Source: a virus
Taxonomy: Duplodnaviria; Heunggongvirae; Uroviricota; Caudoviricetes
Virus record (IMG/VR): IMGVR_UViG_2548876961_000004
DNA length: 14,398 nucleotides
Reading direction: 5' to 3' (one strand)
Shown here: piece after piece, positions 1 to 14,393 of the stretch
How the letters are laid out: the number at the start of each line of letters is the position of its first letter
How positions within the stretch are numbered: the first letter of the stretch is position 1
Program-made: the position numbers and the translations under genes
Notes under the pieces: generated by a model
What the model was told of the DNA's origin: nothing
Database searches by the model: none
What the model saw: only the letters and a program-made list of their open reading frames with translations

Positions 1-80
1 TGTTGGTACTGACTGATGGCGCTCTGGTCTGCGGCATTGTGGTATTGCTGTGGCCGATGATGAAAGAACAGAATGAATAA
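1..80 (+). CDS. 3' end of an upstream ORF (partial; hydrophobic C-terminus ...LVLTDGALVCGIVVLLWPMMKEQNE, stop TAA 78-80); product unknown
   Basis: Open frame from position 3 running to TAA at 78-80; hydrophobic stretch suggests a membrane segment. Only 26 codons are visible, so the call is weak. Confidence 0.3.
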   Translation, partial: LVLTDGALVCGIVVLLWPMMKEQNE

Positions 81-83
81 TTC

Positions 84-113
84 TTGACTTTTTTGTTTAC
101 TGTTTATTAAAAA
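84..113 (+). promoter_or_regulatory. Candidate late promoter (pR'-like): TTGACT at 84-89, A/T-rich -10-like hexamer 17-18 bp downstream (TTAAAA/TAAAAA at 107-113)
   Basis: Perfect -35 hexamer TTGACT (same as recalled lambda pR' -35), moderate -10 match, and a strong intrinsic terminator about 180 nt downstream, matching the lambda pR'-6S RNA-tR' layout upstream of the lysis genes. Confidence 0.35.
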
Positions 114-266
114 ATCAACCGCATGGTGAATCCTCCTTGGAGGGGCTAAATGATCGAGTTTTAAGGGCACGTAGCGAGTTCTGTTTGATCATTGCAGAAC
201 TTAGCGGGAGGCGCCATGCGTACATCACTAATGTTATTTCCTTCTATCATTTTCCTTGTGAGTTCT

Positions 267-293
267 GGCTGCGCATGGCGCGGCCTTTTTTTT
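267..293 (+). terminator. Rho-independent terminator (tR'-like): stem GGCTGCGC / GCGCGGCC, loop ATG, followed by T8
   Basis: 8-bp GC-rich stem (one G-U pair) at 267-274 and 278-285 followed directly by eight T residues at 286-293. Confidence 0.6.
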
Positions 294-482
294 ATGACCT
301 GCCACTGGCAGATGGTCATCCTGTGATTTGATTCCGGTTCCGGCTTTTTAACTCTGTTCCTGTACACGGGAGAAATTCTATGTCGATTAATCGTTATGAT
401 ATTGGTTACAAGAAGTACCACGTATTGTGTTGAGATAGAAAGCATGGTGCCAGAGGTAAATGCAGCAGCATAATAAAAAAGA

Positions 483-522
483 GCCAGCGCAGAAGAGAAC
501 GGGTAAAAGAGTCTGCGCTGGC
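483..522 (-). terminator. 11-bp perfect inverted repeat (GCCAGCGCAGA ... TCTGCGCTGGC) with 18-nt loop; on the minus strand it is followed by CTCTTTTTTATT, i.e. a minus-strand-oriented intrinsic-terminator-like hairpin
   Basis: Stem arms at 483-493 and 512-522; A-rich run 471-480 on the + strand becomes a U-tract 3' of the hairpin on the - strand. Confidence 0.3.
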
Positions 523-639
523 GTGGGGATATTCCCCGTGGAGAAATGATATGTAACACACATCGGGAACCTTTCTATATAAACATTATCATTATTGTCA
601 ATCATAACAGTCAGGTATTATGACGTTTATGCATCAGGG

Positions 640-666
640 CCATCAGGAATTAACTGGTGGCTTTTT
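640..666 (+). terminator. Terminator-like or attenuator hairpin (CCATCAG / CTGGTGG stem with one G-U pair, 7-nt loop) followed by CTTTTTATT, 35 nt upstream of the holin start
   Basis: Stem arms at 640-646 and 654-660, T5 run at 662-666. Confidence 0.3.
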
Positions 667-701
667 ATTGTTGTCAGCTTCCGGATAACGGGAGACGGGG
701 T

Positions 702-917
702 ATGTACCAGATGGAAAAAATAACAACAGGTGTGTCATACACCACGTCAGCGGTGGGGACGGGATACTGGCTACTGCAGTTGCTGGACAAAGTCTCCCCA
801 TCCCAGTGGGTGGCAATAGGCGTATTGGGTAGCTTGGTGTTTGGCTTGCTGACGTATCTGACAAACCTTTATTTCAAGATTAAAGAAGATAAGCGTAAGG
901 CTGCGAGAGGTGAATAA
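702..917 (+). CDS. S: Class II holin (pinholin), phage 21 S-like, with dual-start motif (Met1 at 702, Met4 at 711)
   Basis: 71-aa product [71 protein letters not shown] with two TM segments and a charged C-terminus, closely resembling the recalled S21 pinholin. GGAGACGGGG RBS upstream; stop TAA overlaps the next start (TAATG). Confidence 0.9.
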
Positions 918-1414
918 TGTCGCCATCATTACGCAAGGCTGTTGCTGCTGCTATTGGTGGTGGGGCTGCTGCCATAGCGTCTGTGCTCATCACTGGTCCG
1001 AGTGGTGACGATGGCCTGGAAGGTGTCAGCTACATACCATACGAAGATATCGTTGGCGTATGGACTGTATGTCACGGACACACCGGAAAAGACATCATTC
1101 CCGGTAAAACGTATACCGAAGCAGAATGCAAAGCCCTCCTGAATAAAGACCTTGCCACGGTCGCCAGACAAATTAACCCGTACATCAAAGTCGATATACC
1201 GGAAACAACGCGCGGCGCTCTTTACTCGTTCGTTTACAACGTGGGCGCTGGTAATTTCAGAACATCGACGCTTCTTCGCAAAATAAACCAGGGTGATATC
1301 AAAGGCGCATGTGATCAGCTACGGCGCTGGACATACGCTGGCGGTAAGCAATGGAAAGGGCTGATGACTCGCCGCGAGATTGAGCGTGAAGTCTGTTTGT
1401 GGGGGCAACAATGA
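917..1414 (+). CDS. R: SAR endolysin (phage 21 R-like lysozyme/muramidase with N-terminal signal-anchor-release domain)
   Basis: 165-aa product with Gly/Ala-rich weakly hydrophobic N-terminus ([23 protein letters not shown]) followed by a lysozyme-like catalytic region ([17 protein letters not shown]); start overlaps holin stop; stop overlaps Rz start (ATGA). Confidence 0.92.
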
Positions 1415-1878
1415 GCAGAGTAACCGCGATTATCTCCGCTCTGGTTATCTGCATCATCGTCTGCCAGTCATGGGCGGTTAATCATTACCGTGATAACGCC
1501 ATCGCCTATAAAGAACAGCGTGATAAAAAAGTCAGTGAGCTGAAGCAGGCGACCGCCACCATTACTGACATGCAGCAGCGCCAGCGTGCTGCTGATGCAC
1601 TCGATGCTAAATACACGAAGGAGTTAGCTGATGCGAAAGCTAAAAATGATGCTCTTCGGCGCAAGCTTGATAATGGTGGTCGGGTGTTCGTCAAAGGAAA
1701 ATGCCCTGTGCCATCCTCAGACGAAACCTCCAGCGCCTCCGGCATGGGCAATGATGCCACCGTCGAACTCTCTCCAGTTGCTGGACGAAACGTTCTCGGT
1801 ATCCGGGACGGAATTATCCGCGACCAAACAGCACTGAGAACGCTTCAGGAATACATCAGGACGCAATGCCTTCGATGA
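1411..1878 (+). CDS. Rz: Rz inner-membrane spanin (i-spanin)
   Basis: 155-aa product [40 protein letters not shown]... with N-terminal TM and coiled-coil periplasmic domain, very similar to recalled lambda Rz; ATG at 1411 overlaps endolysin stop. Confidence 0.9.
1631..1837 (+). CDS. Rz1: Rz1 outer-membrane lipoprotein spanin (o-spanin), embedded in the +1 frame of Rz
   Basis: 68-aa product [44 protein letters not shown]...: signal peptide with lipobox VVGC and proline-rich mature region as in lambda Rz1; AAGGAG RBS 7 nt upstream of the ATG. Confidence 0.85.
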
Positions 1879-2052
1879 TAGCGATAATTTTACTCATCAT
1901 CCTTCACATCTGGCTCTGTAGACAGGGTGGTGCTCACTTCTGGAGTGAATCATGGTTAAACATCTCATTGCTGATGCTTGATATTGAGCATCTGGCGCGC
2001 GGTAAGGGGCTGCGTTGAGATAAGAGCCAGTCATTAAAAATACCTGGATTTA

Positions 2053-2076
2053 GCCTCGCATTCGCGGGGCTTTTTT
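2053..2076 (+). terminator. Rho-independent terminator downstream of the lysis cassette: stem GCCTCGC / GCGGGGC (one G-U pair), loop ATTC, then T6
   Basis: Stem arms at 2053-2059 and 2064-2070, T run at 2071-2076. Confidence 0.45.
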
Positions 2077-2079
2077 ATT

Positions 2080-2123
2080 GCCATTACAAAAGCCACTCCC
2101 TACAGAGTGGCTTTGATAATGGC
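2080..2123. repeat. 44-bp imperfect palindrome / extended hairpin: outer arms GCCATTA/TAATGGC, 2x2 internal loop, inner 10-bp perfect arms AAAGCCACTC/GAGTGGCTTT, 6-nt loop
   Basis: Directly read from sequence (outer arms 2080-2086 and 2117-2123; inner arms 2089-2098 and 2105-2114). No flanking U-tract on either strand, so not a classical intrinsic terminator. Confidence 0.5.
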
Positions 2124-2506
2124 TTATACCCTACACGGGATAACTTAACTGATATCCCTTTTAACGGATAAAGGTATTCAAGCCTGACACATCATGCGCT
2201 GTATCGTCGCTGTATTCCCGCATTAACCATGACCGTAGCCCGACGGGGAACTCCTTCTGCGCGAGTGTGCGGGAATAATCAAAAACGATGCACACCGGGT
2301 TTTTACCGCGCTAATGATTCGCGGGTTTGTCCCTCATGCTCGCCAGTCCTGTGCGGGGGTGGAAGAAACAGGACACTCACACAGATTCTTGTGGGTCGAT
2401 GCTATTCCTTTCTGGATTATCCCGATGCCATTCATGCAAGGGCTGTATCAGACGTTCGTCATGGCTTTCAGGCTGACGGCTCCTCCCGGTGGGGTGGCCT
2501 GCCACG

Positions 2507-2518
2507 GGGCGGGAGCGT
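2507..2518. other. Candidate cosN (cohesive-end site) with variant core GGGCGGGAGCGT, flanked by ACG and CGCGG as in lambda (ACG-GGGCGGCGACCT-CGCGGG)
   Basis: About 17 of 24 positions match the recalled lambda cosN region, with divergence concentrated in the middle of the 12-nt overhang. Location about 175 bp upstream of the small terminase start matches lambda (Nu1 starts about 190 bp from the left end). Confidence 0.4.
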
Positions 2519-2690
2519 CGCGGAAAAAGGCTAGTTTTTGCATTTTTATCGGCCACCATCATCTTTGCATCTTATTGATTATTAATGGTTATTTGTTTTT
2601 TGTATGTCGAATTGAGTGTTTTTTGTTCGACGTCGAACGCGTTTTCTTAAAGTTGTTCGCACGATGCATGTTTAAAGCTCTCCGGAGGAA
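2519..2690 (+). promoter_or_regulatory. Candidate cosB-like terminase-binding region: A/T-rich, direct repeats TGTTTTTTGT (2594-2603, 2617-2626), repeated TTGTTCG motifs, and a perfect 14-bp palindrome GTTCGACGTCGAAC (2625-2638)
   Basis: Repeats read directly from sequence; position between the putative cosN and the small terminase gene is analogous to lambda cosB (R sites plus IHF site). Confidence 0.35.
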
Positions 2691-2692
2691 AT

Positions 2693-3184
2693 ATGGATCA
2701 TGAGTTGAAAAACCTGGTGCTGAATATTAATCAACTGGCGGCTTTATCTGGTCTGCACCGCCAGACTGTCGTGGCAAGACTGAAAAACATTCGTCCCGCT
2801 GGTGGACATGACAAACTCAAGCTATACCGGTTGACCGATATTCTGACTGAATTTATGGGGTTACCACCGCCGGTTGCTGAGGGCGAAATGGATCCACATG
2901 AACGCAAAGCCTGGTATCAGTCTGAACGTGAGCGTCTTAAGTTCGAACAGGAAACGGCACAACTCATTCCGGCCAGTGATGTCAGACGGGAGTTTGCCAT
3001 CTGGGCAAAAGCGGTCGTGCAGGTGCTGGAGACATTACCGGATATTCTGGAACGTGACTGTGGTCTGCAGCCTGCCGCTGTGAGCCGTGTTCAGTCCATT
3101 ATTGATGATCTGCGCGATCAGATAGCCCTGCGGGTGACCGAAGCAGGTGCGGATGATGAGGAGGAATTACAGCAGGAGGAGTAA
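2693..3184 (+). CDS. Terminase small subunit (Nu1-like function; N-terminal HTH DNA-binding domain, acidic C-terminus)
   Basis: 163-aa ORF immediately upstream of and overlapping (TAATG) the large terminase; N-terminal helix-turn-helix-like segment NINQLAALSGLHRQTVVARLKNI; GGAGG RBS 4 nt upstream; synteny cos-terS-terL. Confidence 0.8.
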   Translation: MDHELKNLVLNINQLAALSGLHRQTVVARLKNIRPAGGHDKLKLYRLTDILTEFMGLPPPVAEGEMDPHERKAWYQSERERLKFEQETAQLIPASDVRREFAIWAKAVVQVLETLPDILERDCGLQPAAVSRVQSIIDDLRDQIALRVTEAGADDEEELQQEE

Positions 3185-5286
3185 TGCTGAATCAGGAAAC
3201 CGCAAAGGCAGCACGAACCGATTCAGGTTATATCCTTCGCGCACCGAGACGAATGCGGGTTGCTGATGCCGTTGCTCAGTATATGCGGGTGCCCATGGGG
3301 GCCGGGAACTCAGTCCCGTGGGATCCGCTGGTGGCACCGTATGTTATTGAGCCGATGAACTGCCTGGCCTCGCGTGAATACGACGCAGTGATATTTGTTG
3401 GCCCGGCACGAACCGGCAAGACTATCGGCCTGATTGACGGCTGGGTGATTTACAACGTGATTTGCGATCCTGCGGATATGCTGATCATTCAGATGACGGA
3501 GGAAAAAGCCCGCGAACACTCCAAAAAACGACTCGCCAGAACGTTTCGCGTCAGCCCGGAAGTGGTCAGTCGCCTGAGTCCGAACAAAAATGACAACAAC
3601 GTTTATGACAGAACATTCCTTGCTGGCAACTACCTGAAAATCGGCTGGCCGTCAGTCAATATCATGTCCTCATCAGATTATAAATGCGTGGCGCTGACGG
3701 ATTATGACCGTTTTCCGGAAGATATTGATGGCGAGGGGGATGCCTTCTCTCTTGCCTCAAAACGTACCACCACATTTATGTCCAGTGGTATGACGCTGGT
3801 GGAGAGTTCCCCCGGCAGGGATGTGAAGGATGTGAAATGGCGACGGACTTCACCGCATGAGGCTCCACCAACCACGGGGATACTGTCGCTCTATAACCGT
3901 GGCGATCGCCGTCGCTGGTACTGGCCCTGTCCACACTGTGGTGAGTATTTTCAGCCCTGCGGCGATGTGGTTGCTGGTTTCCGTGATATTGCCGATCCCG
4001 TGCTGGCAAGTGAGGCGGCTTATATTCAGTGTCCTTCCTGTTCAGGACGGATTATGCCTGAACAAAAACGTGAGCTGAACGGACGTGGGGTCTGGTTGCG
4101 GGATGGTGAATCCATCAATGCGGATGGTAGTCGTTATGGTGATCCCCGACGCTCACGTATTGCGTCATTCTGGATGGAGGGTCCGGCAGCTGCTTACCAG
4201 ACACTCTCGCAACTCGTTTACAAACTGCTTACTGCAGAACAGGAATACGAGACAACCGGAAGTGAAGAAACACTCAAGACGGTTATCAATACCGACTGGG
4301 GATTACCTTATCTTCCCCGCGCCAGCATGGAGCAACGAAAAAGTGAACTGCTTGAGCAGCGGGCAGAGCCAGTTCCTTCCAGCAGTGTGCCGGATGGCGT
4401 TAATTTCCTTGTGGCGACAGTGGATGTGCAGGCGGGACGTCATCGCCGTTTTGTGGTTCAGGTAACGGGCTATGGCAGCCGTGGCGAACGCTGGATTATT
4501 GATCGTTACAACATCACGCAGTCATTGCGCGGTGACAGCGACGGTGAGAGCCAGCGAATTGATCCGGCCAGCTATCCGGAAGACTGGGATGTCCTGCTGA
4601 CGGATGTTTTTCATAAAAGCTGGCCGCTGGCCTCCGATCCTTCTCAACAAATGCGACTGATGGCAATGGCGGTGGACTCCGGCGGTGAAGACGGGGTCAC
4701 TGATAATGCCTATAAATTCTGGCGTCGTTGCCGTCGTGATGGCCTTGGTAAACGTATTTACCTGTTTAAGGGCGACAGCATCCGGCGCGCAAAACTGATC
4801 ACCCGTACATTCCCTGATAACACCGGACGAACGGGCCGACGGGCGCAGGCCGCAGGTGATGTGCCGCTCTGGCTTCTTCAGACGGATGCACTGAAAGACC
4901 GGGTGAATAACGCGTTATGGCGTGACTCTCCAGGTCCCGGCTATGTGCATTTCCCTGACTGGCTGGGGAGCTGGTTTTACGACGAACTGACGTATGAAGA
5001 GCGGAGTAGTGACGGGAAATGGAGTAAGCCGGGTCGCGGTGCCAACGAAGCTTTTGACCTGATGGTGTATGCCGAGGCTCTGGTCATTCTGCATGGATAC
5101 GAAAAGATCCGCTGGCCGGATGCACCGGGGTGGGCGAGCCGGGAAACCTGGCTGGAGAGTGTCCCGGACAGTACCGAACCGTCACCCTCACCGGAACCGG
5201 TATCCACGCCTGTTAAAAAACAAAAACGGAAGAAAACAGTAACTGACGATGTTAACCCCTGGCTGACTTCCGGAGGATGGTTATGA
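3184..5286 (+). CDS. Terminase large subunit, lambda gpA family (ATPase plus nuclease)
   Basis: 700-aa product with P-loop/Walker A (VGPARTGKT) and a Cys cluster (CPHCGEYF...CPSCSG) reminiscent of gpA-type terminases; CAGGAGGAG RBS; C-terminal Pro/Ser/Lys-rich tail. Confidence 0.92.
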   Translation: MLNQETAKAARTDSGYILRAPRRMRVADAVAQYMRVPMGAGNSVPWDPLVAPYVIEPMNCLASREYDAVIFVGPARTGKTIGLIDGWVIYNVICDPADMLIIQMTEEKAREHSKKRLARTFRVSPEVVSRLSPNKNDNNVYDRTFLAGNYLKIGWPSVNIMSSSDYKCVALTDYDRFPEDIDGEGDAFSLASKRTTTFMSSGMTLVESSPGRDVKDVKWRRTSPHEAPPTTGILSLYNRGDRRRWYWPCPHCGEYFQPCGDVVAGFRDIADPVLASEAAYIQCPSCSGRIMPEQKRELNGRGVWLRDGESINADGSRYGDPRRSRIASFWMEGPAAAYQTLSQLVYKLLTAEQEYETTGSEETLKTVINTDWGLPYLPRASMEQRKSELLEQRAEPVPSSSVPDGVNFLVATVDVQAGRHRRFVVQVTGYGSRGERWIIDRYNITQSLRGDSDGESQRIDPASYPEDWDVLLTDVFHKSWPLASDPSQQMRLMAMAVDSGGEDGVTDNAYKFWRRCRRDGLGKRIYLFKGDSIRRAKLITRTFPDNTGRTGRRAQAAGDVPLWLLQTDALKDRVNNALWRDSPGPGYVHFPDWLGSWFYDELTYEERSSDGKWSKPGRGANEAFDLMVYAEALVILHGYEKIRWPDAPGWASRETWLESVPDSTEPSPSPEPVSTPVKKQKRKKTVTDDVNPWLTSGGWL

Positions 5287-5495
5287 ACCAGAATGATATC
5301 GAAGCCATGATTCAGCGTTATACGGAAGCTGAAATGGCGGTGCTGGACGGAAAATCCGTCACCTTTAATGGTCAGCAGATGACCATGGAAAACTTATCTG
5401 AGATCCGGCAGGGACGGCAGGAGTGGGAGCGCCGCCTTGCGGCTCTGATTACACGACGACGGGGGCATCCCGGGTACCGGCTGGCGAGGTTCTGA
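5283..5495 (+). CDS. Head-tail joining protein, lambda gpW-like
   Basis: 70-aa product MNQNDIEAMIQRYTEAEMAVLDGKSVTFNGQQMTMENLSEIRQGRQEWERRLAALITRRRG..., same size and character as recalled lambda W (68 aa); ATG at 5283 overlaps terminase stop (ATGA) with GGAGG 6 nt upstream. An in-frame ATG at 5277 has no spacing to the RBS, so 5283 is preferred. Confidence 0.8.
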   Translation: MNQNDIEAMIQRYTEAEMAVLDGKSVTFNGQQMTMENLSEIRQGRQEWERRLAALITRRRGHPGYRLARF

Positions 5496-7004
5496 TGGCA
5501 ATTCTTGATGATGTGATTGGCGTTTTTTCACCAGGATGGAAAGCGGCAAGGCTGCGTTCCCGTGCGGTGATCCAGGCTTATGAGGCCGTAAAAACGACGC
5601 GGACACACAAAGCCCGGCGGGAAAACCGAACTGCCGACCAGTTAAGCCAGTACGGGGCCGTGTCGTTACGTGAGCAGGCCCGTTACCTTGATAACAACCA
5701 CGATCTGGTTATTGGTGTATTTGACAAGCTGGAAGAACGGGTGGTGGGGAAAAACGGGATTATTGTCGAGCCACATCCGGTATTACGCAATGGGGCCATT
5801 GCCCGTGATCTGGCAGCGGAGATACGCACCCGATGGAGTGAATGGTCTGTCAGTCCGGAAGTCACCGGGCAGTTTACCCGTCCGATGCTGGAACGTCTGA
5901 TGCTGCGTACCTGGCTGCGCGATGGTGAGGTGTTTGCCCAGATGGTTTCCGGGCGCATAAACAGCCTGACGCCTTCTGCCGGTGTTCATTTCTGGCTGGA
6001 GGCGCTCGAGCCAGACTTTATTCCCATGACCAGTGATGAGAGCAACAGGCTGAATCAGGGCGTGTTTGTTGATGACTGGGGGCGTCCCGAAAAATATCTG
6101 GTGTATAAAAGCCGTCCCGTATCCGGACGGCAGATGGAAACCAAAGAAGTGGATGCAGAGCGAATGCTGCATCTTAAATTTGTTCGCCGTCTGCACCAGA
6201 TGCGCGGGACGTCTTTGTTGTCCGGTGTGCTGATCCGCCTCAGTGCCCTGAAAGAGTATGAGGATTCTGAGCTGACTGCAGCAAGGATCGCCGCTGCTCT
6301 GGGGATGTACATCCGGAAAGGCGATGGGCAGAGCTATGAACCGGATGGTAATGGCAGCAAGGATAAGGAACGCGAGCTTACCATTCAGCCAGGCATTATT
6401 TACGACGATCTGAAACCCGGCGAAGAAATCGGAATGGTGAAGTCGGATCGCCCCAATCCTAACCTTGAAACTTTTCGTAATGGTCAGTTGCGTGCCGTGG
6501 CGGCGGGCAGTCGTCTGAATTTTTTCCAGTACAGCGCGCAACTATAACGGCACTTACAGCGCCCAGCGTCAGGAGCTGGTTGAATCCACTGATGGCTACC
6601 TGATCCTGCAGGACTGGTTTATTGGTGCCGTCACCCGCCCGATGTATCGTGCCTGGCTGAAACAGGCTGTGGCATCCGGTGTTATCAGGCTACCCCGCGA
6701 TCTTGACCGTTCTTCACTGTATACCGCGGTGTATTCCGGACCGGTGATGCCGTGGATTGACCCTGTTAAGGAGGCTGAGGCCTGGAAAATTCAGATTCGT
6801 GGTGGAGCAGCGACAGAATCAGACTGGGTACGTGCAGGTGGTCGTAATCCGGATGATGTCAAACGTCGGCGCAAGGCCGAAATTGATGAAAACCGCAAGC
6901 TGGATCTGGTATTTGATACCGATCCGGCCAGTGATAAAGGAGGCAGCAGTGCCGCAACGAAACGACAGGAGCCGCAGCACACCGACGACCAGTCCGAAGA
7001 ATAA
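5495..7004 (+). pseudogene. Portal protein (lambda gpB-like), interrupted by a frameshift at a T6 homopolymer (6520-6525): N-terminal part in frame 5495..6547, C-terminal part in the +1 frame 6519..7004
   Basis: ATG at 5495 overlaps gpW stop (TGATG). The frame stops at 6545-6547, while the adjoining +1 frame is open from 6519 and encodes a plausible continuation (...SSTARNYNGTYSAQRQELVESTDGYLILQDWFIGAVTRPMYRAWL...). Removing one T from the T6 run restores a single ORF of about 500 aa, the expected portal size. Confidence 0.85.
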
Positions 7005-7017
7005 TTCCTGGTTCAGG

Positions 7018-8976
7018 ATGCAGGCTGGTCACCAGAGTGACGCGGATATTTATATTTATGACGAGATTGGTTTCTGGGGTGTTACAGCGAAGCAGTTTAT
7101 CAGTGATCTGAATGCACTGGGCGATATCACCCACATTAATCTCAATATCAATTCACCGGGTGGCGATGTCTTTGAAGGCATCGCCATTTTTAATGCACTG
7201 AAAACACATGGTGCGTCCATTACCGTTTATGTCGACGGTGTGGCGGCGTCAATGGCGTCGGTCATTGCGATGGTGGGAAAACCGGTCATTATGCCGGAAA
7301 ACTCCTTCATGATGATTCATAAACCATTTGGCTTTACGGGCGGTGATGCGGAGGACATGCGCACCTATGCCGACCTGCTCGATAAAGTTGAGGCGGTTCT
7401 GTTACCCGCTTATGCACAGAAAACCGGGAAAACCACCGATGAAATTGCTGCCATGCTGGCGGATGAGACCTGGATGTCCGGTGCCGAATGTCTGGCACAT
7501 GGATTTGCTGATCAGGTGACGCCAGCCGTTAAGGCAATGGCATGTATTCAGTCAAAACGTACAGAGGAATTTAAAAAGATGCCGGAATCCATTCGAAACA
7601 TGATTACTCCGCCACGCAACAGTGCTCCACGCGTACAGGATGATGGACCTGCAGCCTCCCGGACGCCAGTGCAGGCAGCAGCACCTGTGGTGGATGAAAA
7701 CAGTATCCGTGCGCAGGTACTGGCAGAGCAAAAAGCGCGTGTAAACGGTATTAATGATCTGTTTGCCATGTTTGGCGGGCGTTATCAGACGCTGCAGGCT
7801 CAGTGTCTTGCCGATCCTGAATGTTCGCTGGAGCAGGCCCGCGAAAAGCTGTTGAACGAGATGGGGCGCGAGTCCACGCCATCTAATAAAAATACCCCGG
7901 CTCATATTTATGCCGGAAACGGTAATTTTGTGGGGGATGGGATCCGCCAGGCGCTGATGGCGCGTGCCGGATTTGAAAAAAACGAACGTGATAATGTCTA
8001 CAACGGGATGACCCTGCGTGAATATGCCCGTATGTCACTGACTGAACGGGGTATTGGGGTTTCCAGTTATAACCCGATGCAGATGGTCGGTGCGGCGTTC
8101 ACACACAGTACGTCTGACTTCGGTAATATTCTGCTGGATGTTGCGAACAAAGCCATTCTGCAGGGCTGGGAAGATGCCCCTGAAACCTATGAACAGTGGA
8201 CGCGGAAAGGTCAGTTGTCTGATTTTAAAATTGCCCATCGTGTGGGTATGGGGGGCTTCAGTGCTCTGCGTCAGGTGCGTGAAGGGGCGGAATATAAATA
8301 CGTCACCACCGGAGATAAACAGGCCACTATTGCACTGGCGACCTATGGCGAGCTGTTCAGTATCACCCGTCAGGCCATTATCAATGATGATCTGAATATG
8401 CTGACCGATGTCCCGATGAAACTGGGCCGTGCGGCGAAATCCACTATTGCCGATCTGGTTTATGCCATTCTGACGTCTAACCCGAAAATCTCCACAGATA
8501 ATGTAAGTCTGTTCGATAAAGCGAAACATGCAAACGTACTGGAGAGCGCTGCAATGGACGTGGCATCGCTGGATAAAGCCCGCCAGTTGATGCGCGTTCA
8601 GAAAGAGGGGGAGCGTCATCTGAATATTCGTCCTGCGTTCGTACTGGTACCGACGGCGATGGAGTCTGTTGCTAACCAGGTCATTCGCTCCTCAAGTGTC
8701 AAGGGGGCTGACATTAACGCCGGTATTATTAACCCGGTGAAAGATTTTGCGACCGTTATTGCAGAGCCTCGTCTTGATGATAACAGCCAGACCACCTTCT
8801 ACCTGGCTGCGTCAAAAGGCTCCGATACGATTGAAGTGGCTTATCTCAACGGTGTGGATACGCCATATATTGATCAGATGGAGGGCTTCAGTGTGGATGG
8901 CGTGACAACGAAAGTGCGTATTGACGCCGGTGTCGCGCCAGTTGATCACCGCGGTCTGGTGAAATGTACGGCGTAA
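7018..8976 (+). CDS. Prohead protease (ClpP/S49-like) - scaffold - major capsid protein fusion polyprotein
   Basis: 652-aa product: N-terminal ClpP-like serine protease domain (DADIYIYDEIGFWGV...NINSPGGDVFEGIAIFNAL...VDGVAASMASVIAMVG), central Ala/Pro/Gln-rich linker, C-terminal ~300-aa HK97-fold-type capsid domain. Starts 13 nt after the portal stop; start codon choice uncertain (weak RBS). Confidence 0.85.
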   Translation: MQAGHQSDADIYIYDEIGFWGVTAKQFISDLNALGDITHINLNINSPGGDVFEGIAIFNALKTHGASITVYVDGVAASMASVIAMVGKPVIMPENSFMMIHKPFGFTGGDAEDMRTYADLLDKVEAVLLPAYAQKTGKTTDEIAAMLADETWMSGAECLAHGFADQVTPAVKAMACIQSKRTEEFKKMPESIRNMITPPRNSAPRVQDDGPAASRTPVQAAAPVVDENSIRAQVLAEQKARVNGINDLFAMFGGRYQTLQAQCLADPECSLEQAREKLLNEMGRESTPSNKNTPAHIYAGNGNFVGDGIRQALMARAGFEKNERDNVYNGMTLREYARMSLTERGIGVSSYNPMQMVGAAFTHSTSDFGNILLDVANKAILQGWEDAPETYEQWTRKGQLSDFKIAHRVGMGGFSALRQVREGAEYKYVTTGDKQATIALATYGELFSITRQAIINDDLNMLTDVPMKLGRAAKSTIADLVYAILTSNPKISTDNVSLFDKAKHANVLESAAMDVASLDKARQLMRVQKEGERHLNIRPAFVLVPTAMESVANQVIRSSSVKGADINAGIINPVKDFATVIAEPRLDDNSQTTFYLAASKGSDTIEVAYLNGVDTPYIDQMEGFSVDGVTTKVRIDAGVAPVDHRGLVKCTA

Positions 8977-8996
8977 ACGTCGCAGACAACAACTCT

Positions 8997-9019
8997 GATG
9001 GCCCGTAAGGGCTTTTTTT
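8997..9019 (+). terminator. Weak rho-independent terminator after the capsid gene (GCCC-GTAA-GGGC followed by T7)
   Basis: Short GC stem at 9001-9012 followed by TTTTTTT at 9013-9019, 25 nt after the capsid stop; likely partial terminator. Confidence 0.45.
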
Positions 9020-9062
9020 GTACCTGAAATCAGCCCCTGAACGGGGCTGTGCGGAGACAGTT

Positions 9063-9386
9063 ATGGCAAAGAATTTTGTAGAAGAAGGAAAAACGGTGGC
9101 GATTGTTGCCAGTGCAGCCATCAGCAGCGGAGATCTGGTGCAGGTGGGCGATGTTTTTGCGGTGGCGCTGACCGATATTCCACAGGGTGAAACAGGCGAC
9201 GGCATGACCGAAGGTGTGTTTATGCTGCCTAAGCTGAAAACGGATGACATGAAAACGGGTAAGAAGGTTTATCTGAAGTCAGGAAAAGTTCAGCTGACTA
9301 ACAGCGGCTCTGATCCGCTGGTCGGGGTTGTCTGGGCAGATGCCGGAACCAGTGCAGAAGAAGTGCCGGTAAAACTCAATGTCTGA
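9063..9386 (+). CDS. Small head-associated protein (DUF2190-like; putative head decoration or stabilisation protein)
   Basis: 107-aa ORF with GGAGA RBS 6 nt upstream of ATG 9063, located directly after the capsid gene; Gly/Val/Ala-rich beta-type sequence. Function inferred from position and general resemblance only. Confidence 0.65.
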   Translation: MAKNFVEEGKTVAIVASAAISSGDLVQVGDVFAVALTDIPQGETGDGMTEGVFMLPKLKTDDMKTGKKVYLKSGKVQLTNSGSDPLVGVVWADAGTSAEEVPVKLNV

Positions 9387-9654
9387 TCCCTTTTCCCGGC
9401 TGGCAGCGCGTATGGATGCTATCACGGTCAGAAAGATGGGAAAGACAGCCTCGATTAATGATGTCGATATGACTGTGATCCCGGGAGAAACACTGGCAGA
9501 GCTGAATGCTCTGTCCGGACCTGCGGTCTCTCTGGTGGTGTTTTCTTCGGGATACCGCCCACGGCGCGGGGATCGCGTTGTTTATGACGGACAACAATGG
9601 ACGGTCACACGGCATGAACGCTTTAACGGTAAGCCAATGATCTTTATTGAGTAA
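9379..9654 (+). CDS. Head-tail connector / head completion protein, lambda FII-like
   Basis: 91-aa ORF overlapping the previous stop (ATGTCTGA); C-terminal motif RRGDRVVYDGQQWTVTRHE resembles recalled lambda FII (RRGDTLTIGEENFWVDRV); position before gpZ as in lambda. Confidence 0.7.
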   Translation: MSDPFSRLAARMDAITVRKMGKTASINDVDMTVIPGETLAELNALSGPAVSLVVFSSGYRPRRGDRVVYDGQQWTVTRHERFNGKPMIFIE

Positions 9655-9665
9655 AGAGGTGTGGG

Positions 9666-10244
9666 ATGAAGGGGCTTGAGAATGCCATCCGCAATCTGAA
9701 CAGCCTTGATACCCGTATGGTGCCACAGGCCAGCGCATGGGCGATAAACCGTGTGGCACAGAAAGCGGGCTCGGTTGCCACCCGGCAGGTTGCCGGGAAT
9801 ACCGTTGCGGGAGATAACCAGGTGAAAGGGATCCCCCTGAAACTGGTTCGTCAGCGTGTCCGGGTGTTTAAAGCCAGTCCGTCAGGAAAAATGACGGCCA
9901 GGATCCGCGTTAACCGGGGCAATCTGCCCGCCATTAAGCTGGGGACAGCCCGGGTCAGACTGGCCCAGCGTGGTGGAAAACTGCAGTACCGTGGCAGTGT
10001 GCTGAAGGTGGGTAAATATCTTTTCCGGGATGCGTTTATTCAGCAACTGGCGAATGGTCGCTGGCATGTGATGCGGCGTATTGATGGCAAAAATCGTTAC
10101 CCCATTGATGTGGTGAAAATCCCGCTGTCCGGACCGCTGACACAGGCATTTGAAGATGCCCGCGACCGCATCATTGCTGCGGAAATGCCGAAACAGCTGG
10201 GGTATGCACTGAAACAACAACTGAGGTTATGGCTGACCCGATGA
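9666..10244 (+). CDS. Z: Tail completion protein, lambda gpZ-like
   Basis: 192-aa product (same length as lambda Z) with strong recalled similarity (MKGLENA..., ...NGRWHVMRRIDGKNRYPIDVVKIPLSGPLTQAF..., ...LGYALKQQLR...); AGAGG RBS 6 nt upstream. Confidence 0.88.
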   Translation: MKGLENAIRNLNSLDTRMVPQASAWAINRVAQKAGSVATRQVAGNTVAGDNQVKGIPLKLVRQRVRVFKASPSGKMTARIRVNRGNLPAIKLGTARVRLAQRGGKLQYRGSVLKVGKYLFRDAFIQQLANGRWHVMRRIDGKNRYPIDVVKIPLSGPLTQAFEDARDRIIAAEMPKQLGYALKQQLRLWLTR

Positions 10245-10642
10245 ACCGACATACACAAATCCGCCAGGTCGTACTGGCACGCCTTCGGGAACAGTGTGGA
10301 GACAGCGCCACGTTTTTTGACGGGCTTCCGGCATTTGTTGATGCGCAGGAACTGCCTGCCGTGGCGGTGTGGCTGAGTGATGCTCAGTACACCGGAAAAA
10401 TGACGGATGAAGATGACTGGCAGGCTGTTCTGCATATTGCTGTCTTCATCCGGGCACAGGCACCGGATTCAGAGCTGGATATGTGGATGGAGAGCACCAT
10501 TTTCCCGGCCCTGAATGATGTATCGGCACTTTCCGGACTCATCGACACCCTGATCCCACTCGGTTTTAACTATCAACGTGATAATGAGATGGCCACCTGG
10601 GCGATGGCGGAAATCACGTACCAGATCACGTACACGAATTAA
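10241..10642 (+). CDS. U: Tail terminator protein, lambda gpU-like (alternative upstream in-frame ATG at 10229)
   Basis: Product MNRHTQIRQVVLARL...ATFFDGLPAFVDAQELPAVAVWLSDAQYTG...PDSELDMWMESTIFPALND...ITYQITY matches recalled lambda U along its length; ATG at 10241 overlaps Z stop (ATGA). Confidence 0.88.
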   Translation: MNRHTQIRQVVLARLREQCGDSATFFDGLPAFVDAQELPAVAVWLSDAQYTGKMTDEDDWQAVLHIAVFIRAQAPDSELDMWMESTIFPALNDVSALSGLIDTLIPLGFNYQRDNEMATWAMAEITYQITYTN

Positions 10643-10652
10643 GGAGGTGGTA

Positions 10653-11396
10653 ATGACCACGCCAAATCCACTGGCAAAGACGAAAGGTGCGGGGACGACG
10701 TTCTGGATGTATACCGGCAACGGCGATGCGTTTGCGAACCCTTTGTCGGACACTGACTGGCTGCGTCTTGCGATGGTGAAGGATCTGCAACCTGGCGAAA
10801 TGACCGCTGATGCAGAAGATGACACTTATCTCGATGATGAAGATGCAGACTGGAAAACGACAACCCAGGGGCAGAAATCCGTTGGTGATACTTCGGCGAC
10901 GCTGGCCTGGCGTCCGGGTGACAGCGGGCAGAAAAAACTGGTTCAGTTGTTCGACTCCGGTGAAGTCTGCGCGTTTCGTATCAAATATCCCAACGGCACT
11001 GTTGATGTTTTCCGCGGCTGGCTGAGCTCACTGGGTAAAACCATTGCCTCAAAAGACGTGATGACCCGCACAGTGAAAATCAGCGGTGTGGGGCGTCCAT
11101 ATCTGGCAGAGGAGGGCACTGAAACTGTGGGCGTTACCGGGCTGACGGTGGCACCGGCATCCGCCAGTGTCAATGTGGGAGCAACCACCACGCTGACCTT
11201 TACAGTAAAACCTGACGGAGCCAGTGACAAAGCGATCAGTGTGCATTCGACAGATCCACAGACAGCCACTGTGACCCTGAACGGACTTGTGGCCACGGTG
11301 AAAGGCGTGAAGCAGGGCAGCGTCAGCATTGTGGGCATGACCGCTGACGGGAATTTTGTGGCTGTGGCTGCGGTGACTGTCAGCGCTGCAGGTTAA
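10653..11396 (+). CDS. V: Major tail tube protein, lambda gpV-like, with C-terminal Ig-like (Big_2-type) domain
   Basis: 247-aa product MTTPNPLAKTKGAGTTFWMYTGNGDAFANPLSDTDW...YLDDEDADWKTTTQGQKSVGDTS...NGTVDVFRGWLSSLGK... closely parallels recalled lambda V (246 aa); strong AAGGAGG RBS 5 nt upstream. Confidence 0.93.
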   Translation: MTTPNPLAKTKGAGTTFWMYTGNGDAFANPLSDTDWLRLAMVKDLQPGEMTADAEDDTYLDDEDADWKTTTQGQKSVGDTSATLAWRPGDSGQKKLVQLFDSGEVCAFRIKYPNGTVDVFRGWLSSLGKTIASKDVMTRTVKISGVGRPYLAEEGTETVGVTGLTVAPASASVNVGATTTLTFTVKPDGASDKAISVHSTDPQTATVTLNGLVATVKGVKQGSVSIVGMTADGNFVAVAAVTVSAAG

Positions 11397-11416
11397 CAGG
11401 ACGATACTCATCATTT

Positions 11417-11440
11417 GCCCCGGTTATCCGGGGCTTTTTT
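11417..11440 (+). terminator. Rho-independent terminator between V and G (GCCCCGG-TTAT-CCGGGGC followed by T6)
   Basis: Perfect 7-bp GC-rich stem at 11417-11423 and 11428-11434, then TTTTTT at 11435-11440. Confidence 0.55.
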
Positions 11441-11456
11441 GCAGGTGGAGAACATG

Positions 11457-11843
11457 ATGTTTCTGAAACAGGGCACGTTTAATTATGAAAAGCAGTCCGT
11501 GGTGCTCAGTGAGCTGTCCGGGCTGCAGAGAATTGAATATCTGGCGTTTGTTCAGCAGCGAACGGCAAAGTTTGATGCCGAAGAGGGAGAACTGCCGGAG
11601 GCTGAACGACAGATTGCTTTTCTGCGGATGGGGATGGATATCAATGCCTGGCTGGTTTCCCGCTCACTGTGGAATGCGGAACAGTCTCAGGATGTTGAGA
11701 CGCTTTGCGCATCCGTTATTACAACATGGTCGTATGATGCCCTGGGAGCGGGGGCGGAGATGGTTCTGTCGCTGAGCGGTATGGGAGCCATTGAGAATGC
11801 CGGGGATTTGGAGCATGAGGTGCTGACGCCGGAAAAGTCCTGA
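11457..11843 (+). CDS. G: Tail assembly chaperone, lambda gpG-like (alternative start ATG 11454)
   Basis: Product MFLKQGTFNYEKQSVVLSELSGLQRIEYLAF... parallels recalled lambda G (MFLKTESFEHNGVTVTLSELSALQRIEHLAL...); GGTGGAG RBS 6 nt upstream. Confidence 0.85.
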   Translation: MFLKQGTFNYEKQSVVLSELSGLQRIEYLAFVQQRTAKFDAEEGELPEAERQIAFLRMGMDINAWLVSRSLWNAEQSQDVETLCASVITTWSYDALGAGAEMVLSLSGMGAIENAGDLEHEVLTPEKS

Positions 11844-12181
11844 CGCGGGAAATGCAGTTTGTCATGCGGCTTGCCCGGGAGTTCCGGCGGGCAGACTGGC
11901 GGCGGATGCTGTCGGAAATGTCGGCCACTGAGCTTGGTGAGTGGGGCGATTATTTCCGGATGCAGAGCTTCAGTGATGTGTGGATGGATGCGCAGTTTGC
12001 CTCGCTGAAGGCATTGATCGTGAGAATGGTGTCCGGTAGCAGTGATGCTGCGGTGGCTGATTTCAGCCTTTTACCGGAAGAGAACGGGATACCGGAGCGA
12101 ACGGACGAAGAACTGATGCATCTTGGGGAAGGTATTTCCGGAGGTGTGCGTTATGGACCAGATAGCCAACCTGGTCATTGA
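11457..12181 (+). CDS. T: Tail assembly chaperone G-T fusion produced by -1 programmed ribosomal frameshift near the end of G (shift window 11819-11843; likely at GGAAAAG 11831-11837); T-specific part 11838..12181
   Basis: The -1 frame relative to G is open from 11819 and runs to TGA 12179-12181, encoding ...VLTREMQFVMRLAREFRRADWRRMLSEMSATELGEWGDYFRMQSF...; the arrangement is the conserved G/G-T frameshift of lambdoid tail operons. Confidence 0.7.
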
Positions 12182-14393
12182 TTTGGGGATTGATGCGGCA
12201 GAGTTTAAAAATGAAATTCCCCGTATCAAAAACCTTCTGAATGGTGCAGCCAGCGATGCAGAACGGTCTTCTGCCCGTATGCAGCGTTTTATGGAGCGTC
12301 AGACTCAGGCCGCCCGGCAGACAATGCAGGCGGCTTCTTCGGCTGCAACAGCCGCATCCGTCCATGCGCAGACGGTGGAGAAGAGCGCACAGGCTCATGA
12401 ACGCATGGCCCGCGAGGTGGAGCAAACCCGCCAGCGTATGGAGGCACTGAGCCAGAAAATGCGCGAGGAACAGGCGCAGGCCATGGCTCTGGCGGAGGCT
12501 CAGGATAAAGCGGCTGCTGCGTTTTATCGTCAGATTGACAGTGTGAAACAGGCCGGTGCGGGGCTGCAGGAATTACAGCGTATTCAGCAACAGATCCGAC
12601 AGGCCAGAAACAGTGGCGGGATTGGTCAGCAGGATTATCTGGCGCTGATTTCTGAGGTTACGGCGAAAACCCGTGTTCTTACACAGGCTGAGGAAGAGGC
12701 TACCCGACAGAAAGTGGCGTTTATCCGTCAGCTTAAAGAGCAGGCAACCCGCCAGAATCTTTCTTCTTCTGAGTTGCTTCGTGCTAAGGCTGCCCAGCTG
12801 GGGGTAAGCAGTGCTGCAGAAGTGTATATCCGCAAAATGGAGCAGGCAGGAAAAGCCACGCATTCGCTGGGTCTGAAAAGTGCAGCAGCCCGTCAGGAGA
12901 TAGGCGTTCTGATAGGTGAACTGGCCCGCGGCAATTTAGGTGCGCTGAGGGGATCCGGAATAACGCTGGCTAACCGTGCCGGGTGGATAGACACACTGAT
13001 GTCACCGAAAGGCATGATGCCAGGAGCGGTTATTGGCGGTATTGCCGCGGCTGTCTATGGTCTGGGTAAAGCCTGGTATGACGGTCAGAAGGAGGGGGAA
13101 GAATTTAACCGCCAGCTGTCGCTGACGGGGCATTATGCCGGAGTCACTGCCGGGCAGCTGTGGACGCTCAGTCGTGCTATTTCCGGGAATGGTATCACGC
13201 AACATGCTGCAGCCGGTGCGCTGGCTCAGGTGGTGGGGAGTGGTGCATTTCGTGGAAACGATATCGGTATGGTGGCGAGAGCTGCCGCACAGATGGAGCG
13301 ATCGGTTGGCCAGTCGGTCAGCGATACCATAAATCAGTTTAAGCGGCTGAAGGATGATCCTGTAAATGCCGCGAAGGCTCTGGACAATGAGCTGCATTTT
13401 CTTACTGCCACTCAGCTTGAGCAGATACGCGTCCTTGGGGAGCAGGGGCGGTCCAGTGATGCTGCACGGATAGCCATGTCTGCACTGGCAGAGGAAACCG
13501 GTCGGCGTACTGCGGATATTGATAATAACCTCAATGCGCTTGGCAGTACGCTGAAGTATCTGTCTGATTTGTGGAGTCGTTTCTGGGATGCGGCCATGAA
13601 TATTGGTCGTGAAGACTCGCTGGATGAACAGATTGCCGCTTTACAGGAGAAAGTGTCGCGGGCGAAAAGACTCCCCTGGACGGCATCATCTTCTCAGGTT
13701 GAATACGATCAGCAGCGTCTTAACGATCTTCAGGAGAAAAAACGCCAGAAGGATTTGCAGGATGCAAAAGAGCAGGCAGAGCGGAATTATCAGGAGCAAC
13801 AGAAACGCCGTAATGCTGAAAATGCTGCACTGAACCGGATGAATGAAACGGAAGCAGCACGACATCAGCGTGAAATAGCGCGTATTAATGCCATGCAGTA
13901 CGCCGATCAGGCTGTCAGGGATGCGGCGATACAACGTGAAAATGAACGTTACGAGAAAGCCCTGGCATCCGGTAAGAAAAAAACACGCGAAACCCGTAAT
14001 GATGAGGCCACCCGGTTATTGCTGCAGTACAGTCAGCAACAGGCACAGGTGGAAGGACAGATTGCTGCTGCCAGACAGTCAGCAGGCATTGCCACGGAAA
14101 GGATGACAGAAGCGCGTAAACAGCTTCTGGCTCTGCAGCAGCGCATCAGCGACCTGGACGGGAAAAAACTGACGGCAGATGAAAAGAGTGTGCTGGCCCG
14201 TAAAGATGAACTGATTCAGGCACTGACGCTGCTGGATGTAAAACAGCAGGAGCTTCAGAAACAGACGGCACTCAACGAGCTGAAGAAAAAAACAATTCAG
14301 CTGACCAGTCAACTGGCTGAAGAAGAGCGCGCTCAGCGTCAGCATGAACCGCCCCGGGAATCCTGGAGACTAAACTCCCTGAGAAAGAGGTAA
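12153..14393 (+). CDS. H: Tail tape measure protein, lambda gpH-like (N-terminal ~745 aa; ORF stops at TAA 14391-14393, 5 nt before the window end)
   Basis: ATG 12153 with GGAGG RBS 8 nt upstream, overlapping the end of T; N-terminus MDQIANLVIDLGIDAAEFKNE... parallels recalled lambda H (MAEPVGDLVVDLSLDAARFDEQ...); long Ala/Gln/Arg-rich coiled-coil region typical of tape measure proteins. Confidence 0.88.
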   Translation: MDQIANLVIDLGIDAAEFKNEIPRIKNLLNGAASDAERSSARMQRFMERQTQAARQTMQAASSAATAASVHAQTVEKSAQAHERMAREVEQTRQRMEALSQKMREEQAQAMALAEAQDKAAAAFYRQIDSVKQAGAGLQELQRIQQQIRQARNSGGIGQQDYLALISEVTAKTRVLTQAEEEATRQKVAFIRQLKEQATRQNLSSSELLRAKAAQLGVSSAAEVYIRKMEQAGKATHSLGLKSAAARQEIGVLIGELARGNLGALRGSGITLANRAGWIDTLMSPKGMMPGAVIGGIAAAVYGLGKAWYDGQKEGEEFNRQLSLTGHYAGVTAGQLWTLSRAISGNGITQHAAAGALAQVVGSGAFRGNDIGMVARAAAQMERSVGQSVSDTINQFKRLKDDPVNAAKALDNELHFLTATQLEQIRVLGEQGRSSDAARIAMSALAEETGRRTADIDNNLNALGSTLKYLSDLWSRFWDAAMNIGREDSLDEQIAALQEKVSRAKRLPWTASSSQVEYDQQRLNDLQEKKRQKDLQDAKEQAERNYQEQQKRRNAENAALNRMNETEAARHQREIARINAMQYADQAVRDAAIQRENERYEKALASGKKKTRETRNDEATRLLLQYSQQQAQVEGQIAAARQSAGIATERMTEARKQLLALQQRISDLDGKKLTADEKSVLARKDELIQALTLLDVKQQELQKQTALNELKKKTIQLTSQLAEEERAQRQHEPPRESWRLNSLRKR

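Follow-up and report, generated by a model that had tools for sequence, protein, structure and literature searches.

The 14,398-nucleotide stretch of tailed-phage DNA analysed here (IMG/VR record IMGVR_UViG_2548876961_000004, referred to below as the window) contains at 2478-2692 what is very probably the cos region of a lambdoid phage of the mEp460/cdtI type, comprising cosQ, cosN, an I2-like spacer and cosB; we would put the probability of this reading at about 90%. The reading is carried by the cohesive-end motif in cosN, its position ahead of the terminase genes, its conservation throughout the family, a large terminase subunit (TerL) of the lambda gpA type just downstream, and the ends of deposited phage genomes, which lie at the predicted nicks. 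The copy in the window belongs to prophage Sp3 of Escherichia coli O157:H7 and is best seen as a relic cos that serves no productive purpose in the host. The central features are these:

2505-2520, no strand assigned: cosN, with the 12-bp cohesive-end sequence GGGCGGGAGCGT at 2507-2518 and a conserved CG on each side (cos bp -2 to 14)
2693-3184, + strand: small terminase subunit (TerS), 163 aa; PF07278 (DUF1441), E=4.6e-44; phrog_141 'terminase small subunit', E=2.7e-77
3184-5286, + strand: TerL, 700 aa, lambda gpA family, with ATPase and endonuclease domains; PF05876 (E=9e-72) and PF20454 (E=1.9e-85), full-length; phrog_15 match

The cohesive-end sequence and its position

The sequence around the 12-mer reads ...GGTGGGGTGGCCTGCCACG/GGGCGGGAGCGT/CGCGGAAAAAGGCTAG..., with CCACG (2502-2506) on the left and CGCGG (2519-2523) on the right. 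By analogy with lambda, the nicks are predicted at 2506/2507 on the top strand and at 2518/2519 on the bottom strand, which would leave 12-nt 5' overhangs. A preliminary description of this DNA had proposed a cos site composed of CCACG, this 12-mer and CGCGG, situated about 175 bp upstream of the small terminase gene, and it was right on both counts: the whole motif (2502-2523) falls inside the interval it had indicated (2495-2530), and the TerS ATG lies 174 nt past the end of the 12-mer, at cos bp 187, where the lambda Nu1 gene starts at bp 191. Its remark that lysis genes lie on one side and packaging genes on the other is likewise upheld by the Pfam matches of the surrounding genes. The gene order is that of lambda, with the lysis genes followed by approximately 630 nt, then cos, TerS and the gpA-family TerL.

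A lambda-derived frame of 14 fixed bases, ACGGGGCGG-N6-CGCGG, occurs a single time in the window, even when one mismatch is allowed, and was not found in any of 200 shuffled sequences. The left half of the 12-mer (bp 1-6) is conserved, and the CG dinucleotides stand beside both nicks within a partial twofold symmetry that extends over 8 of 16 bp (pairs -2/14, -1/13, 3/10 and 4/9). In lambda the figure is 10 of 16, consistent with the published one (PMC9026076). A literature search with the 12-mer and its complement returned unrelated eukaryotic papers only, and Rfam gave no match at the gathering score.

Conservation was assessed in 80 IMG/VR loci picked by TerS protein homology alone. A GGGCGG-type 12-mer was present in 79 of them, placed so that the TerS gene starts at cos bp 186-188, or at bp 197 in one locus; the preliminary description had named lack of conservation at the equivalent position in related phages as grounds for giving up its proposal, and the motif is plainly conserved there. 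Seventy of the loci carry exactly GGGCGGGAGCGT and seven carry GGGCGGGAGCGG, while single loci have the right half GAGCAT, the right half CAGCGG or a left half with a single change. Column entropy, calculated from 69 unique sequences, reaches its minimum over 2503-2542 (0.01-0.10 bits, with cosN at about 0.01-0.07), whereas the 200 nt upstream score 0.7-1.6 bits and cosB 0.2-0.9 bits. These 40 nt are the most conserved of the entire interval between the lysis and terminase genes, more so than the start of the TerS gene. Upstream of cosQ, the sequences are unrelated between lineages, and the conservation at the site therefore does not stem from reading frames that span it.

The cos type is also widespread. 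Of 5426 complete E. coli genomes, 2057 contain a 66-nt cos core, and in a collection with one genome per species the exact 20-mer is essentially confined to Escherichia. Three different cosB/TerS modules occur next to the unit formed by cosQ, cosN and the spacer: that of the window, that of mEp460 (86-87% TerS identity) and that of cdtI (about 43%, also DUF1441). Lambda and phage 21 are known for the same kind of mosaicism.

Comparison with known cos phages

The lambda record reads TTACG/GGGCGGCGACCT/CGCGG. Eight of the 12 cohesive-end bases (1-6, 10 and 12) are identical in the window and bases 7, 8, 9 and 11 differ; CGCGG on the right is shared in full (5/5), while the left flanks have ACG in common. 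The earlier statement that the flanks and first six bases are those of lambda and the central bases are not is thus confirmed by the lambda record, with ACG as the shared part of the left flank. The two regions also resemble each other in having a cosQ heptamer about 30 nt upstream, CG at both nicks, a GGGCGG left half, 12-bp ends, a TerS start about 190 nt downstream followed by a gpA-family TerL, and an IHF-like site (integration host factor, IHF) oriented as in I1. On the other hand, cosQ in the window is 1 nt nearer to the nick, the symmetry of cosN is lower (8/16 versus 10/16), TerS is of the DUF1441 rather than the Nu1 family, TerL is only about 24% identical to the lambda type, and the R3/R2/R1 triple was not detected.

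A closer match is Salmonella phage Gifsy-1, whose cosN (GGGCGGCAGCGT) is identical to that of the window at 11 of 12 positions, base 7 being C instead of G. The CG flanks are shared, as is the cosQ heptamer (GGGTCCT in relatives of the window, the window copy having a G-to-C change), but Gifsy-1 has a Nu1-family TerS and a head module of the lambda/21 type. The Feiss laboratory reported it as a lambda-like cos phage with ends unlike lambda's at bases 8, 9 and 11 (PMC4669245), in agreement with the record. Phage cdtI (AB285204) and Tritos (OV696610, a linear record) both open with GGGCGGGAGCGTCGCGG (GGGCGGGAGCGTCGCGGAAAAAGG), that is, at GGGCGGGAGCGT, and end in ...GCCACG, so that their deposited ends coincide exactly with the predicted nicks. 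The core that the preliminary description called a variant is not new: a single base separates it from the published end of Gifsy-1, and the cdtI and Tritos records have it as their end. As an identification of cos, the description is correct, ordinary and already known.

Together with mEp460 and PhiR40_1, cdtI and Tritos have a cosN and spacer identical to those of the window and a structural module with 96-98% nucleotide identity. They differ from it in that they come from phages that have been isolated or induced, the genomes being complete, the portal gene intact and cosQ GGGTCCT; cdtI and Tritos differ further in their divergent DUF1441 TerS (about 43% identity) and in having another cosB. 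The virion-derived record of mEp460_4F5 (LR595868.1, L005 1-30) starts with CCACGGGGCGGGAGCG-CGGAAAAAGG, 5 nt before the predicted nick and with 3 nt of the 12-mer missing, which was probably introduced during assembly at the point where the virion DNA physically ends. The cos of mEp213/LLS, GGGCGGCGCGCT (inferred; PMC12315714), belongs to the same lineage of DUF1441 TerS and gpA-type TerL, and has the same flanks and spacer as the window.

cosQ, the spacer and cosB

The other elements of the region are listed here, with their positions also given in cos bp:

2478-2484, + strand: cosQ-like heptamer GGCTCCT, its first base 29 nt before the top-strand nick (lambda: 30 nt), from comparison with lambda, Gifsy-1, PhiR40_1 and cdtI
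2519-2542, + strand: conserved spacer CGCGGAAAAAGGCTAGTTTTTGCA (bp 13-36) at the position of lambda I2, with A- and T-tracts; entropy 0.03-0.10 bits in 69 unique relatives
2553-2563, + strand: candidate TerS-binding element CCACCATCATC, a CAT-repeat (bp 47-57); (G)TCATCATCATCAT in relatives, from comparison of cosB in the DUF1441-TerS lineage
2568-2580, - strand: IHF-like site AATCAATAAGATG (bp 62-74), one mismatch to WATCAANNNNTTR
2593-2611 and 2619-2637, + strand: T-rich direct repeats of distal cosB, TTGTTTTTTGTATGTCGAA and TTTTTTGTTCGACGTCGAA (bp 87-105 and 113-131)
2625-2638, + strand: distal cosB palindrome GTTCGACGTCGAAC, perfect over 14 bp (bp 119-132)

The cosQ heptamer of the window matches GGGTCCT at six of seven positions, with a G-to-C change at 2480. 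Among the TerS-selected relatives (n=79), 75 have GGGTCCT (at 28-29 nt) and four have GGCTCCT. Sakai Sp3 has the change, and so do 311 E. coli records with 100% identity across the 66-nt core; among the matches listed, all are O157:H7-type strains. In lambda, cosQ has a role in packaging termination (PMC4669245). The G-to-C change may be an inactivating lesion in the termination signal. Part of the DUF1441-TerS lineage (IMG/VR L065, L066, L041, L019, L029 and others) has GGTACTC about 29 nt before cosN instead of GGGTCCT, and cosQ is therefore less invariant there than has been stated for lambda-like phages. The spacer is common to phages with differing cosB and TerS, and in lambda I2 has a role in termination (PMC4669245).

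The organisation of cosB is less clear-cut. The CAT-repeat at 2553-2563 sits where R3 is found in lambda (bp 50-65) and N15 (bp 48-60; PMC9026076), which makes it a candidate TerS site by position. An IHF match with at most one mismatch occurs at bp 61-64 in 27 of 37 unique DUF1441-type cos regions (33 of the window type and four of the cdtI type), and the I1 region of lambda has a match of equal orientation and quality at bp 79. The distal repeats at 2593-2638 are candidate accessory TerS sites. In PhiR40_1 and IMG/VR contig L092, ATGTCGAA (at 2604-2611 in the window) and TTCGACAT form an inverted repeat. These two functional relatives also differ from the window at base 2632 of the palindrome, having GTTCGACATCGAAC where the window has GTTCGACGTCGAAC. 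A repeat search run on the window yielded only weak T-rich direct repeats and one palindrome. Bp 47-57, 98-106 and 119-132 hold weak candidates, and an R3/R2/R1-like assignment would be a low-confidence idea.

The terminase and a model for cutting

The nicking of cosN would be expected of TerL, which shares 88% identity with the TerL of cdtI; the C-terminal, endonuclease half is almost identical. TerS has a predicted N-terminal helix-turn-helix (NINQLAALSGLHRQTVVARLKN) and lies outside the Nu1 family that goes with a cosB complex of the lambda type. A profile search of PDB sequences with TerS returned nothing meaningful. A single-sequence AlphaFold2 model of TerS was discarded, its mean predicted local distance difference test (pLDDT) score being 53, with the N-terminal domain scoring below 50.

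In a functional member of the family, the DUF1441 TerS would bind to cosB, probably with the help of IHF, and place the gpA-type TerL on cosN. Nicking at 2506/2507 and 2518/2519 would then generate virion DNA with 12-nt 5' overhangs and the left end 5'-GGGCGGGAGCGT. Packaging would proceed rightwards from the terminase genes and stop at the next cos, for which cosQ, cosN and the spacer would all be needed. The parts assigned to cosQ, I2 and IHF, like the 5' polarity, follow from the lambda precedent, and the manner in which TerS recognises cosB is assumed.

The site lies in a defective prophage

Positions 1-14344 of the window are 100% identical to a chromosome of E. coli O157:H7, and the window is 99.98% identical to Sp3 of strain Sakai. 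In the Sakai annotation, the matching region is 'prophage Sp3, lambda-like phage' (891,124-929,709), inserted between ybhC and ybhB/bioA. The neighbouring genes and the portal lesion are as follows:

657-1878, + strand: lysis cassette, with a class II holin (657-917, PF04971), lysozyme (917-1414, PF00959) and Rz spanin (1399-1878, PF03245), as in the RefSeq annotation of the identical O157:H7 locus
5495-7004, + strand: portal gene, disrupted by a +1 frameshift due to one additional T within a T-run at about 6515-6520, from alignment with the intact portal gene of mEp460_4F5

The lysis genes are late genes, from the right-arm end of the phage map, and TerL is followed by a gpW-like adaptor, a portal protein of the lambda family, a ClpP-capsid fusion and tail genes. 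A terminator-like hairpin at 2052-2071 (AGCCTCGC-ATTC-GCGGGGCT, then TTTTT) stands between the lysis genes and cos, and late transcription past it would need Q-mediated antitermination. At 6757-8976 (the true start being near 6950-7000), the ClpP-like prohead protease and the major capsid protein form one fusion gene, which is annotated as such in RefSeq. A fusion of this kind has also been reported for heads of the Gifsy-2 and mEp213 type.

According to the annotation, the integrase gene of Sp3 is a pseudogene, bet is truncated, and the immunity (repressor) and replication genes are absent. RefSeq labels the portal locus as two portal fragments or as a pseudogene, and this frameshift is one of the lesions that make Sp3 defective. 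Asadulghani et al. found Sp3 negative for circularisation, replication and packaging (PMC2669165). Sp3 is thus not a functional, inducible prophage with intact integration, replication and head-assembly genes. Its cos is most likely unused, because Sp3 does not excise or replicate and because of the G-to-C change in cosQ. With changes in both cosQ and one cosB repeat, the Sp3 copy may show a cos site in decay. The earlier suggestion that the physical ends of the virion DNA fall inside the window applies to the phage type; it does not apply to the Sp3 copy, which is defective, was reported not to be packaged (PMC2669165) and has the point change in cosQ.

Alternative explanations

Could an inducible phage of this genome nevertheless use the site as its active cos, in which case the window would hold the ends of virions made by the strain? 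The lesions described above (integrase, bet, repressor and replication genes, and the +1 frameshift in the portal gene), the experimental results for circularisation, replication and packaging (PMC2669165) and a cosQ change confined to this lineage all argue otherwise. Such a phage is very unlikely, even though TerS and TerL are intact and 99-100% identical to the proteins of isolated phages, and functional relatives have an identical cosN and spacer. Headful (pac) packaging, or some other geometry of the ends with the GGGCGG motif as a vestige, would be in keeping with a TerS from outside the Nu1 family, but TerL belongs to the lambda gpA family with its ATPase and nuclease domains, a class that is tied to 5'-overhang cos ends (Casjens classification, cited in PMC12315714). 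Moreover, cosQ, the CG flanks, the left half and the spacer have all been kept in register, the linear records begin and end at the nicks, and what is found is a fixed, conserved site at a constant distance from TerS, all of which makes pac packaging highly improbable. It might also be argued that the likeness to lambda cosN arose by chance in G+C-rich non-coding DNA, or that the conservation comes from an open reading frame (ORF; 2229-2534 or 2314-2703). ORFs do cross the site, residues 65-101 of ORF 2229-2534 match phrog_17397, and GenBank phage records such as PhiR40_1 annotate a 'hypothetical protein' over it; the bare 12-mer with up to two mismatches is, in addition, as frequent in shuffles as in the window and so is not significant alone. 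However, the 14-base lambda frame occurs once where none is expected, the deposited genome ends lie exactly at the site, and these ORFs have no Pfam match. Conservation is confined to the stretch from cosQ to the spacer, and the would-be ORF body upstream is unrelated in the cdtI-type and other lineages, a pattern opposite to synonymous-biased substitution with the frame kept in all lineages. The phrog_17397 family looks like a set of spurious ORFs that only the conservation of the cos DNA preserves. The probability of chance or coding conservation is close to negligible.

Several points nonetheless weigh against the identification of 2478-2692 as a cos region of the mEp460/cdtI type. The alignment of TerS with lambda Nu1 by hhalign has a probability of 2%, which is not significant, and TerS does not belong to the Nu1 family (PF07471), although the same alignment does line up the N-terminal helix-turn-helix segments of both proteins. 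The cosQ sequence, GGCTCCT, departs from GGGTCCT at a conserved position. Matches to the IHF consensus with one mismatch are no commoner in the window than by chance, and the one in cosB is not significant alone. No equivalent triple emerged from the cosB of the window in a repeat search that does pick out R3, R2 and R1 of lambda. Finally, the deposited ends of cdtI and Tritos may themselves have been placed on the model of lambda.

Variation in the right half of cosN

How variable are the cohesive ends? IMG/VR was scanned with the lambda frame, leaving bp 7-12 free; the counts come from a sample and are lower bounds. The commonest right halves were:

CGACCT: at least 51, as in lambda
GAGCGT: at least 12, as in the window
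CGCGCT: at least 8, as in mEp213/LLS
CAGCGG: at least 6
GAGCGG: at least 4

Many further right halves occur once each among the matches listed. These matches form two lineages, one with a Nu1 TerS and lambda-type flanks, the other with a DUF1441 TerS and the arrangement ...GGGTCCTCCCGG...CCACG/.../CGCGGRAAANGGCTAGTTTTT. In the latter, TerL is 70-100% identical to that of the window, and there are at least 14 right-half variants. The pattern agrees with work from the Feiss laboratory that found differences at bp 7-12 to be common but the left half, cosQ and the CG flanks to be conserved (PMC4669245).

Would such ends be interchangeable with those of lambda? The preliminary description held that they are related but not interchangeable, and with regard to annealing this stands: four of 12 bases are mismatched, three of them adjacent, and a mismatch of two bases in the cohesive ends already costs about fourfold in phage yield (PMC4669245). 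With regard to cutting it does not, since cleavage is reported to be insensitive to the right half, the lambda and N15 terminases failing to discriminate between right-half variants and cutting them equally well (PMC4669245; PMC9303873). Packaging specificity lies in cosB and TerS, and the TerS here is of another family (DUF1441). The diversity of right halves could be actively selected, creating cohesive-end 'compatibility types' that limit annealing or hybrid packaging among co-resident lambdoid prophages or with cos-bearing satellites. We consider this unlikely; the alternative is neutral drift of positions that the nuclease ignores.

Some IMG/VR contigs have more than one cos. A 12-kb contig (L039, IMGVR_UViG_2574179916_000005) has three same-strand cos sites of the DUF1441 lineage at 93-112, 8228-8247 and 10764-10783. 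Its order is a TerL cut off after the ATPase domain (776-1771), integrase, Bro-N, DUF4222, AAA_25, SSB, cos, ClpP-capsid fusion, cos and DUF1441 TerS, and it may be a satellite or an element resembling a phage-inducible chromosomal island (PICI) that uses the cos type of the window, or else a rearranged prophage. Three others (L023, L034 and L063) each have a pair of lambda-type cos sites (GGGCGGCGACCT) that face opposite ways and are separated by 0.5-0.9 kb; a gpA-type TerL was detected downstream of neither cos, and these contigs may be cos-bearing satellites (PICIs).

Implications

The position of cos sets the natural left and right ends of the maps of mEp460/cdtI-type phages, and the 'hypothetical proteins' that have been annotated across it are spurious; beyond annotation, this has little import. 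Sp3 carries the effector genes nleB, nleC, nleH and nleD and retains intact terminase genes and a near-intact cos. It is conceivable that a helper phage of matching specificity could mobilise it, but the cosQ change, the lost replication functions and the published negative packaging result argue against this. The DUF1441 small terminases serve a cos type found in approximately 38% of complete E. coli genomes.

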